Part shown: one piece after another, positions 3,885 through 58,141 of the stretch
How the letters are laid out: every line of letters begins with the position of its first letter
How positions within the stretch are numbered: the stretch's first letter is position 1
Position numbers and translations under genes: made by a program
Notes under the pieces: generated by a model
Database searches by the model: none
What the model was told of the DNA's origin: nothing
Seen by the model: the letters and a program-made list of their open reading frames with translations, nothing else
Source: Escherichia phage vB_EcoP_PW8
DNA: 64,000 nucleotides
Sequence record: PQ362703.1
Reading direction: 5' to 3' (one strand)

Positions 3885-3899
3885 AGACGCTCCGCGTCT
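3885..3899 (+). promoter_or_regulatory. conserved hairpin AGACGC-TCC-GCGTCT, candidate virion-RNAP early promoter
   Basis: 6-bp stem, 3-nt TCC loop directly upstream of the 3911/4010 gene. Confidence 0.35.
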
Positions 3900-39741: not shown

Positions 39742-39746
39742 AGTAA

Positions 39747-39770
39747 AGCCCCTCATTAGAGGGGCTTTTT
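39747..39770. terminator. bidirectional terminator between convergent genes
   Basis: AAGCCCCTC-ATTA-GAGGGGCTT with T-run after it on plus and A-run before it, between the 39535 gene end and the virion RNAP gene end. Confidence 0.7.
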
Positions 39771-50196: not shown

Positions 50197-50220
50197 GAAA
50201 AAAGCCCCGAAGGGCTTTTG
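50197..50220 (-). terminator. rho-independent terminator on minus strand
   Basis: On the minus strand AAAAGCCC-TTCG-GGGCTTTT followed by TTCTTAC. Confidence 0.55.
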
Positions 50221-55316: not shown

Positions 55317-56159
55317 TTAGTTCAGCCCGTTGTTAGACTTCAGCTTGGTTAAAATGGTATCAATACTTGCGTTAGTGAAACCATTTGGTGGGTTCAAGCC
55401 TTCATCAATAGTCTTCTGTGTAATCCATGCATCAGTAAACAGCTTAGATGCTTTAACCTCTGCATCACGTTGGTAAGAAGTAATCTGTTGAGAGTACAGT
55501 TCTTTCTGTTTACCTACAGAACCAGTAACAGTAGCACCATCACTACGGGTATCTAGTGTCTGTGCACGTTGTGCTTCGGTCTGCTCAGTAATCAGCTTAA
55601 GCTGTTGAGGTAACATCTGATTAGCATTAAACAATGCAGCACAGTACGTCTCAGACTCAGTAGCAATCTTCATCTTAGTAAGAGCGTATTCACTCTTAGC
55701 AGACAGTGCCTGAATCTTAGCTAGTACAAACTGAGCTTTAGAAGTAGCCAATGTAACACGTGCAGTAACTGCCTGAATCTGTGCCAGTGCAGCAGCCCAG
55801 TATGCCTGGTCACGACCAAGTAAGAACTGAACAGCATTACTCATGCATGATTCCATCATAGCAATGTATGCTTTGGTATATTCACCACCTGTAATACGGT
55901 TAGCTTTAAACTCAGCTTTAAGGTGATTATGTGCAGATTCCATTAATGCATCAAACGTACCACTACCACCTACTTCACGAGTAGTAAGAGATTCATTGGT
56001 TATTTTAGTAATGGCACCAAAGATTGGAGAACCATCCCCACCAGGGATATCCCATTCGGGGCCAGACATATCAATATCAGGAAGGGCAAAGTCATCACCC
56101 TTAGTTAACTCTTCAAGGAGTCGGTTAGCTTCTACCTCAGCAGAACAAGACATAATCAT
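55317..56159 (-). CDS. virion structural protein (function unknown)
   Basis: 280-aa ORF in the structural block. Confidence 0.5.
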
Positions 56160-56229
56160 TCCTCTTGGTTCAAAAAGAAACGGCCCACGGAGTTACCCCA
56201 GTGAGCCGTGTTGAACTGTAGCTTATACG

Positions 56230-56871
56230 TTAATCGTTAAGGCTACCAGCAGCAATCTGTGCTTGAGCCAGTTGAGCTAATTCAGCTTCAGTCAACGGAG
56301 GCAGTACTTCGATGGAGAACTCTCGTGCTTCTGTTGCACGGATATCCGGTAAGCCATTCTTGCCTTTACGGGTAGTAATGTTAATGAACTTACGTTCTTT
56401 AAGGAACTCGTAGATACAGTACGGAATATGATAACCATTGTCGGTTACTTCACCGAATGGAACAAACTTACGTACAGTACCCATATATTCGTTAGCTACG
56501 GTGATAATCTCACCCGGCAGGTCTTTCTTCTTAGGATCAAGGTTCTGGATACGTACACGGATCAGTCGAGTCTGCTCTGCACGAATCTTTTGACCCAGGG
56601 TCATCTTCTTAACACCAGCTTCTTGCTTAGCACCCAGTGGATTAACAGCAGCTTCTTCTACTACTGGTTCATCTTTTACTTGTGCAGCTTCAATCTTTTC
56701 ACGAAGCTTCTCAACGGAAATGTTGTTAGAGAACTTGATATTCATCAACGTTGCACGTTGCTTAAGAACTTCAAGTTCACTAGGCATTGCAATATCGTTA
56801 ACGGTATCTTCGTTGCCCTGTACGTTCTGTTCCACGCCAGTGGTCGGTTTATCGTTAATGCTCATGTTCAT
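56230..56871 (-). CDS. structural-module protein (function unknown)
   Basis: 213-aa ORF downstream of the capsid gene. Confidence 0.5.
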   Translation of the reverse strand: MNMSINDKPTTGVEQNVQGNEDTVNDIAMPSELEVLKQRATLMNIKFSNNISVEKLREKIEAAQVKDEPVVEEAAVNPLGAKQEAGVKKMTLGQKIRAEQTRLIRVRIQNLDPKKKDLPGEIITVANEYMGTVRKFVPFGEVTDNGYHIPYCIYEFLKERKFINITTRKGKNGLPDIRATEAREFSIEVLPPLTEAELAQLAQAQIAAGSLND

Positions 56872-56901
56872 ATTTCCTATGGTTCATTTAGTTTTATTAA
56901 G

Positions 56902-56930
56902 AGGGGGACTAATGTCCCCCTTGTTTTATT
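56902..56930. terminator. strong hairpin just downstream of the capsid gene
   Basis: AGGGGGAC-TAAT-GTCCCCCT 8-bp perfect stem; T-run follows on the plus strand, A/U-rich flank on the minus strand. Confidence 0.45.
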
Positions 56931-56938
56931 TCGGACTA

Positions 56939-58141
56939 TTACAGAGGAGCAACAGTCTTAATCAGAGCCAGACGTTCTGGGCGTTTAACCAGAATACCAT
57001 AGTACCACTTGATAGAACTGAAGCCAGTTTCACCATACGGGTCATTACGGTCAGCAGTTTCTTTACCCGGCATCTTAGTCATGATGGTGAACTTAACAGA
57101 CTTACCATCAGTCTGGAAGCCAATGGTAGAGAAGGAATCATCACCAACTACCAGCATCGGGAATACGTCGTAGTGCTCCTGACCAGATACCATAGAAGTA
57201 CGATAACCTGGGTTAGTAGTAACCTGTGCACCAGCACCTGCCCAGTGCAGCATCTCAGGAACCTGGATAATACGGAACTTATCAATACAACCGATTTCAC
57301 CATTCATCAGAGTACCAGCATCTGCATAGTGCTGAACTTCAATGAATGCTTTGTTACCGAACAGGTCTTTCATCGCTTTCAGTTCTGGAACCAGTTCAGA
57401 ACCAACGTACATTACACGAGTACCACCAAGTACTTTGGTATCAGTAAGTTTAGAACCAGTAATGATAGTAGTCTGAGTCGGGGTACGGTTCTCAGTAAGA
57501 ATCTGGTCAAGACGCATCAGGTTCTTATAAGAAACTACAGACGGGGTAGCACCTTCACCGGTGATGGTAGCATCAGAGACAGCAGCACCTGCATACAGTA
57601 CAGTACCAGCAGCAGCCAGCAGGTCTTTCTGAAGAACAGCTTCAGTCAACTGTACAGCACCGTTCATCAGTTCACGAGACAGGTGTTCTTTCAGTTGATC
57701 ATCAGAATCGAAGTCCAGAGACTCTTGGGTAAATTCATAGAAGAAACCGAACTTATGAATAGAACCTTCACGAGCCAGACGAGTAAAGCCTACACGGTTA
57801 ACACGACCACCGTTCTCTGACAGCAGAGGCAGTTTAGAGGTGATGTTACCAACGTCTTTAGAAGAACCATACAGGTTACCGTTAACGATGGTAGCACCAT
57901 TAGCATCAATACCCTGGTCGTTAATGTTCTTGTCATCGAGCAGAGGAACGTACTCATACACCTTAACAGTCTTACCATAGTTCTTCGGCATGTTAACGGT
58001 GTTAGCCAGTGGCATAAAGTACTGGTCTTTACGGGACTGAATAATAGCTTTCTTCAGCCAGTAATAGGTATTCATCTGGTCGGAACCAGCACCGTCAATG
58101 CTAGATTTCTGACCGTCAATTGGAGCGTTATAGTTTAACAT
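56939..58141 (-). CDS. major capsid protein (N4 gp56-like)
   Basis: 400-aa ORF between a scaffold-like acidic protein and a strong hairpin; size and position match N4 major capsid protein. Confidence 0.6.

Follow-up and report, generated by a model that had tools for sequence, protein, structure and literature searches.

A family-wide hairpin downstream of the major capsid gene in a Gamaleyavirus coliphage, a probable weak terminator

The capsid–gp55 gap and its hairpin

The window analysed here, the whole 64,000-nt stretch of Escherichia phage vB_EcoP_PW8 (PQ362703.1), derives from an N4-like coliphage of the genus Gamaleyavirus, family Schitoviridae (G7C/EC1-UPM type). Plus-strand genes extend up to ~39.2 kb of the window, and between ~64 and 39.8 kb every large open reading frame, including that of the 3,458-aa virion RNA polymerase (vRNAP), lies on the minus strand. 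In N4, late genes are transcribed by host σ70 RNA polymerase, which the phage SSB activates (PMC4496689), and by analogy we assume that the minus-strand block is the late region and would be transcribed in the same way. Within this block lies the major capsid gene (Table 1), which matches the N4-gp56 major capsid family TIGR04387 with an E value of 2.4e-100 and shares 96–97% nucleotide identity with Gamaleyavirus records labelled major coat or head protein. The N4 capsid has T=9 geometry, and the capsid protein is required in hundreds of copies. A gap of 67 nt separates the capsid gene from a homologue of gp55, a protein absent from the list of ten N4 virion proteins (PMC6027278). The 2 kb around this gap are 96–97% identical to G7C-like N4-type coliphages such as EC1-UPM, ECBP1, Bp4 and St11Ph5. 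The capsid reading frame closes with tandem in-frame stops, TAA TAG (56936–56941, minus strand; TAG at 56936–56938), a pair found also in N4 and Moo19 and replaced by TAA TAA in KP8; tandem stops are typical of very highly expressed genes.

Table 1. Features of the capsid–gp55 region, in window positions
Feature	Position	Strand	Basis or remark
Major capsid gene, N4 gp56 homologue	56939–58141	−	ORF list; TIGR04387
Capsid stop, TAA	56939–56941	−	
Antisense T-run, TTGTTTTATTT	56921–56931	+	Consensus scan call; discriminant +26.7
Hairpin 5′ arm in late transcript, AGGGGGAC	56914–56921	−	
Hairpin loop, AUUA	56910–56913	−	Hypervariable among close relatives
Hairpin 3′ arm in late transcript, GUCCCCCU	56902–56909	−	
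Degenerate sense tail, CUUAAUAAAACU	56890–56901	−	Discriminant −7.5
TGAACCATAGGA box with gp55 Shine–Dalgarno	56875–56886	−	Conserved 5′ of gp55 homologues
gp55 homologue	56230–56871	−	Named after PhAPEC7 annotation
Next hairpin, canonical intrinsic terminator after gp55, stem + UUUCUUUUU	56172–56210	−	Fold; ARNold annotation in PhAPEC7 GenBank record

The gap contains a hairpin that begins 17 nt past the capsid stop and ends ~30 nt ahead of the gp55 start. On the plus strand, positions 56902–56921 read AGGGGGAC-TAAT-GTCCCCCT, a perfect 8-bp stem with six G:C pairs and a 4-nt loop, to which a G·U pair (56901/56922) can be added as an optional ninth on that strand. The perfect G/C-rich stem of 8 bp past the capsid stop that the initial annotation had described is confirmed by the sequence, by folding and by shuffling: a 41-nt segment folds at −16.0 kcal/mol on the minus strand (z = −4.2, equalled by none of 200 shuffles) and at −17.7 kcal/mol on the plus strand (z = −2.9), and the entire gap gives z = −2.5 and −3.1 on the minus and plus strands, respectively. 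The window has 39 perfect stems of 8 bp or longer with loops of 3–8 nt, against 7.6 ± 3.1 in dinucleotide shuffles; for those with six or more G:C pairs the count is 6 against an expected 0.37, an excess of ~16-fold. Most of the other such stems in the window are clear terminators of plus-strand genes with clean T-runs. The capsid hairpin is not a chance structure.

Among Gamaleyavirus genomes more than 91% identical in this region (L007–L011, L050, L062, L068, L001), the stem is invariant and the loop hypervariable. Minus-strand loop variants occur as reverse-complement pairs, one comprising ATTA in the window and TAAT in IME11, and a second ATAA in ECBP1 and PhAPEC5/7 and TTAT in pSb-1; these look like loops flipped through template switching within a perfect palindrome.

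The two strands differ in what follows the stem. In the late transcript the tail is (U)CUUAAUAAAACU, and the initial annotation was correct in finding no clean U-run on the coding strand: the stretch UCUUAAUA has four U among its first eight bases, the stem-terminal U included. On the plus strand nine pairs are followed by GTTTTATTTC, and a consensus terminator scan called a terminator there, having made no call at the hairpin on the minus strand. Likewise, the ARNold annotation in the PhAPEC5 and PhAPEC7 records has the gp55 terminator and not the capsid hairpin. We scored tails with a d'Aubenton-Carafa-type discriminant with a threshold of 0, and the sense value of the window falls just under it. 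As an intrinsic terminator, the sense strand offers a GC-rich stem-loop within the usual size range (stem ~5–14 bp, loop 3–8 nt) and a position past the stop in an intergenic gap and lacks the U-rich tract (~7–9 nt), and the antisense strand offers both the stem-loop and the T-run. This T-run predicts a canonical intrinsic terminator for plus-strand transcription. The initial annotation ended the element at 56930, which takes in TTGTTTTATTT, and was silent on the canonical T-run of the opposite strand. A degenerate sense U-tract combined with a textbook antisense T-run suggests that the element is probably bidirectional, weak in sense and strong in antisense. Two direct copies of the 8-nt sequence GTTTTATT (in minus-strand reading, AATAAAAC) bracket the hairpin at 56891–56898 and 56923–56930 (plus strand), and could be a small duplication that interrupted an original sense U-tract or a chance occurrence in AT-rich DNA.

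Conservation and a mapped counterpart in LUZ7

To place the hairpin in its family, we collected 71 loci with capsid relatives of 45–100% amino-acid identity from IMG/VR and added N4, Moo19, KP8, Ea9-2, Jgk1 and PhAPEC7 from GenBank. Every sequence that reaches past the capsid stop carries a strong hairpin 7–32 nt downstream of it. Among 57 distinct N4-like sequences, window included, 56 form an ungapped hairpin at least as stable as −13 kcal/mol within 80 nt of the stop (median energy −17.6 kcal/mol), a level reached by only 2.5% of control 80-nt windows within the capsid gene, and 53 of the 57 beat all 100 of their dinucleotide shuffles. Folding energy favours neither strand across the 57 sequences (coding over opposite in 30, the reverse in 26; p = 0.16). 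We define here a positional family, that of a strong hairpin no more than ~35 nt past a gp56-type capsid stop and before a gp55-like gene, and the window belongs to it. No feature is annotated at the hairpin position in the 55 related GenBank records that we examined.

Stem sequences are diverse across the family, including GGGGGAC, GGGGAGG, GGGAAGGGG and GAACCAAGGGG. In 30 sequences with 4-nt loops, all seven aligned stem pairs have changed on both sides, with 64 such cells against 17 ± 4 in shuffles and 5–13 with slid partners; pairing in this alignment is 100% by construction, because its register was fixed to the structure, and the independent evidence is the positional result. At least 120 unrelated viral contigs share the stem pattern of the window, AGGGGGAC-N4-GTCCCCCT, and 93 of 121 copies are T-rich on at least one side. 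It is therefore a generic terminator stem, and we rejected the idea of a specific or mobile element.

Tail quality divides the family by lineage. In the 48 sequences outside Gamaleyavirus, the discriminant exceeds 0 on the coding strand in 22 and on the opposite strand in 4, and the coding strand is the better-scoring orientation in 45 and the opposite strand in 3. By contrast, the nine Gamaleyavirus-type sequences, window included, score −3 to −10 on the coding strand and +23 to +27 on the opposite strand, and in all nine the canonical T-run is confined to the plus strand. The preference of the 48 for coding-strand tails points to sense-strand termination past the capsid gene as the family-wide function. 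Sense tails are U-rich in Jgk1/L067 (UUUAUUAA), KP8 (CUUUAAU), Moo19 (UUAUUUAU) and N4 (UUACUUUAU), which argues for sense termination as the ancestral role; the Ea9-2 hairpin at the same spot is followed by UACUUCUC. Set against these near outgroups, Gamaleyavirus appears to combine a decayed sense tail with a canonical antisense one. Inversion of hairpin and tail in Gamaleyavirus was considered and rejected because the sense tail CUUAAU can be aligned with CUUUAAU of KP8.

A literature search for N4 or Gamaleyavirus transcriptome or 3′-end data found only that of LUZ7. Past its capsid stop, LUZ7 (L080) has GGGGAGG-GAAA-CCUCCCC followed by UUUUUU, and this post-capsid sequence is identical to the 50 nt upstream of the mapped terminator T56 (Table S3 of the LUZ7 ONT-cappable-seq study by Putzeys et al., 2022). 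T56 (59943, minus strand) follows the capsid gene orf79, is predicted as intrinsic by TransTermHP and ARNold, and terminates with an efficiency of 0.65 at 20 min (bioRxiv 10.1101/2022.03.18.484859), a figure not directly transferable to the window because LUZ7 has a Pseudomonas host and a clean U6 tract. T57 (59974, plus strand; efficiency 0.39–0.44; bioRxiv 10.1101/2022.03.18.484859) is the same hairpin in antisense reading, without a T-run. Mapped transcription units there include TU70, 1,317 nt from PL23 to T56 and carrying the capsid gene only; TU71, from PL23 to T55 and carrying the capsid gene with orf78 by read-through; and TU69, a 214-nt antisense RNA from PL22 to T57 (bioRxiv 10.1101/2022.03.18.484859). 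The gene reached by read-through, orf78, is gp55-like, and the mapped start sites include none between it and T56 (bioRxiv 10.1101/2022.03.18.484859). The authors allow that part of the mapped 3′ ends may stem from processing (bioRxiv 10.1101/2022.03.18.484859). The LUZ7 hairpin in the capsid slot is thus a partial terminator whose read-through feeds the next gene and which also acts on the other strand.

The LUZ7 and window elements share their late-strand slot between an N4-gp56-type capsid gene and a gp55-like gene, and both have a GC-rich stem of 8–9 bp with a 4-nt loop. They differ in the stem, which is GGGGAGG/CCUCCCC in LUZ7 as in N4, and in the tails: LUZ7 has a clean U6 in sense and no antisense T-run, so that the polarity of tail quality in the window is the reverse of that in LUZ7, and the hosts are E. 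coli and Pseudomonas, respectively. Elsewhere in LUZ7, between gp54-like and gp53-like genes (L080 7835–7854), a hairpin with the stem of the window, AGGGGGAC-CGAA-GTCCCCCT, has a U5 tail. Its loop contains the late start site PL21 (58279, minus strand), and the LUZ7 tables list no termination site there.

Signals downstream of the capsid hairpin

In the block from the portal gene to the vRNAP gene, intergenic gaps exceed 20 nt only after gp56, gp55 and gp51, and each of the three holds a hairpin. Clean U-runs lie past the gp55 (UUUCUUUUU) and gp51 (UUUUUUCUU) hairpins. A consensus scan found no promoter on either strand between the capsid hairpin and gp55, and candidates picked by eye beside the hairpin, the best with 7 of 12 matches and without the −7 T, were rejected. 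Because no promoter-like site follows the capsid hairpin, gp55 would be reached by read-through and its expression would depend on it. Such a layout is consistent with a strong signal placed behind one that is weak by design.

Short motifs accompany these hairpins. A box, TGAACCAnAGGA, lies just 5′ of the gp55 start, and a similar one, GAACCAAGAGGA, lies 5′ of the gp54 start (56160–56171, minus strand), each directly past a hairpin. The start of the mechanically called gp54 reading frame, ATG at 56159 (minus strand), directly abuts AGGA; the true start is probably the ATG at 56153, because this restores normal Shine–Dalgarno spacing and agrees with the PhAPEC7 annotation. As a repeated motif TGAACCANAGGA was rejected: the window holds a single exact copy, and the excess of matches with two mismatches is scattered in coding sequence. 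A gapped search for TGAACCANAGGA found an extra copy before gp54 and a coincidental one within a plus-strand reading frame at 39.4 kb. In more distant members of Schitoviridae, the outer stem of the capsid hairpin consists of GAACCARG and the complementary CYTGGYTC (many loci among L012–L076); these occur in 28 and 26 of 56 loci, respectively, against a background of ~0.1 per 100 nt. Their conservation appears to exceed what a terminator needs.

Two further hairpins lie elsewhere in the window. One, AAAGCCCCTC-ATTA-GAGGGGCTTT (39745–39768), lies between the end of the last plus-strand reading frame (39741) and that of the minus-strand vRNAP gene (39774), and marks the point where the two strands converge; the other, AAAAGCCCC-GAAG-GGGCTTTT (50200–50219), lies past gp51. 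Both are GC stems, symmetric and A/T-flanked, and are likely to be bidirectional terminators.

Interpretation of the capsid hairpin

With a probability of about 0.7, we consider the hairpin to be this phage's form of a family-wide signal that makes mRNA 3′ ends just past the capsid gene. Late minus-strand RNA would fold into the 8-bp stem (−16 kcal/mol), and at the poor U-tract behind it some polymerases would terminate. Any transcript ended or cut farther downstream would be shortened as far as the stem, which would then protect it, so that termination or trimming would each yield stable, abundant capsid mRNA. The remaining polymerases would read into gp55 and then meet the strong canonical terminator past that gene, giving graded expression with capsid high and gp55 lower. 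On the plus strand, the palindrome followed by TTGTTTTATTT would efficiently stop antisense transcription. By the likeness to LUZ7, partial termination, read-through and antisense termination would occur here as well, though not necessarily with the same efficiencies. The initial annotation had proposed a partial terminator or 3′ stabiliser favouring capsid mRNA, a proposal supported by the conservation in 56 of 57 sequences and by LUZ7 T56.

Known systems offer partial parallels. The T7 terminator Tφ lies after gene 10. Leaky terminators past highly expressed phage structural genes resemble the element in the window in having a stable post-capsid hairpin and a step-down in abundance with read-through; Tφ, by contrast, acts on a phage single-subunit RNA polymerase, whereas the late polymerase of the window would be the host σ70 holoenzyme with an N4 SSB-type activator. 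Inefficient T7 terminators are also cited in the LUZ7 study (bioRxiv 10.1101/2022.03.18.484859). Bidirectional intrinsic terminators share with the capsid hairpin a palindromic stem that is flanked by A-rich sequence on its 5′ side and by partly U-rich sequence on its 3′ side. They usually lie between convergent genes, unlike the hairpins of the window and of LUZ7 T56/T57, where both neighbours are on the same strand; we infer that T56/T57 is the one stated exception among the four bidirectional pairs of that study.

Could the hairpin act after transcription only? For want of a U-tract there would then be no sense termination, and the hairpin would block 3′-to-5′ exonucleases after endonucleolytic cleavage and so give a long-lived capsid mRNA. 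The degenerate sense tail, the stable stem and the processing origin that the LUZ7 authors allow for some 3′ ends are all consistent with such a stabiliser. However, the coding-strand tract scores positive in 22 of 48 sequences from other lineages and outscores the opposite strand in 45, and LUZ7 T56 was found in 5′-triphosphate-enriched, full-length reads. A U-tract on the coding strand in most other lineages points to termination as the conserved function, and we regard stabilisation alone as rather unlikely. A role mainly in antisense is distinctly improbable: the Gamaleyavirus hairpin would end plus-strand transcripts from inside or beyond gp55, as between PL22 and T57 in LUZ7, and keep antisense RNA or colliding polymerases away from the capsid gene, with a negligible effect in sense. 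The plus-strand-only T-run of all nine Gamaleyavirus-type sequences is as this would predict, and in LUZ7 the 214-nt TU69 ends at the capsid hairpin and the antisense start PL22 lies in the equivalent place. Against it, no σ70-like plus-strand promoter is predicted within 55.3–56.9 kb by a consensus that N4-type late promoters only weakly resemble, the tandem stops and an AT-rich spacer account for part of the A-richness upstream of the stem, and Jgk1/L067, KP8, Moo19 and N4 retain a U-rich sense tail.

A composite proposal is clearly unlikely. It holds that the Gamaleyavirus hairpin has switched its efficient direction and chiefly ends a short RNA antisense to the gp55 5′ end, in the manner of PL22 to T57, with sense 3′ ends arising by U-tract-independent termination or trimming, and that the GAACCARG/CYTGGYTC box is a cis-regulatory site used across the family by a protein or RNA and not a relic of the stem.

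A signal that makes 3′ ends past the capsid gene remains the preferred reading. Since the hairpin is family-wide and occupies the slot of the LUZ7 partial terminator, it may be taken as an ordinary, understood gene-dosage signal. It appears to be an unannotated member of a known terminator type, and its polarity, weak in sense and strong in antisense, suggests bidirectionality as a minor genus-specific twist. Read in this way, the hairpin would delimit the capsid transcription unit of G7C-like coliphages on its 3′ side, and could serve as a compact natural attenuator or bidirectional terminator in engineering phages that are therapeutic candidates. Family-wide conservation and the mapped LUZ7 counterpart indicate that the step-down in expression past the capsid gene is both ancient and fixed in the late operons of Schitoviridae, and the capsid hairpin opens no new question.

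Other structural identities fit less well. An RNase III site, for which ~20 bp or more of double-stranded RNA is expected, was rejected, the stem having only 8–9 bp and the 67-nt gap no longer helix on the minus strand. A scan of 56100–57100 with Rfam covariance models, at E values up to 10, gave no match overlapping 56872–56938. The proposal of an element acting in DNA, whether an N4-type vRNAP hairpin promoter, a LUZ7-type hairpin middle promoter or a functionless inserted palindrome, is barely credible. Extruded DNA hairpins do serve as promoters in N4-like phages, an 8-nt direct repeat flanks the hairpin, and LUZ7 PL21 lies in the loop of an identical-stem hairpin at another locus. However, no −10 element with its invariant final T precedes the hairpin, and both its universal position and the coding-strand T-tail of the family would be unexpected for a promoter or for junk. 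The promoters of N4 vRNAP, which have 5–7-bp stems, 3-nt loops and conserved purines (G at −11 and −10) and lie upstream of early genes (PMC4496689), resemble the window hairpin as short GC-rich inverted repeats in an N4-like genome and differ from it in loop length and sequence, stem length, location and orientation. Here the loop has 4 nt, is all A/T and varies freely, and the hairpin lies past a late-gene stop; the vRNAP promoter identity was rejected on loop length, loop sequence and late-region location. A search with the vRNAP promoter consensus returned nothing similar at 56.9 kb. A plausible early-promoter hairpin does occur at 3886–3898, where the minus strand reads GACGC GGA GCGTC, a 5-bp stem with a 3-nt GGA loop.
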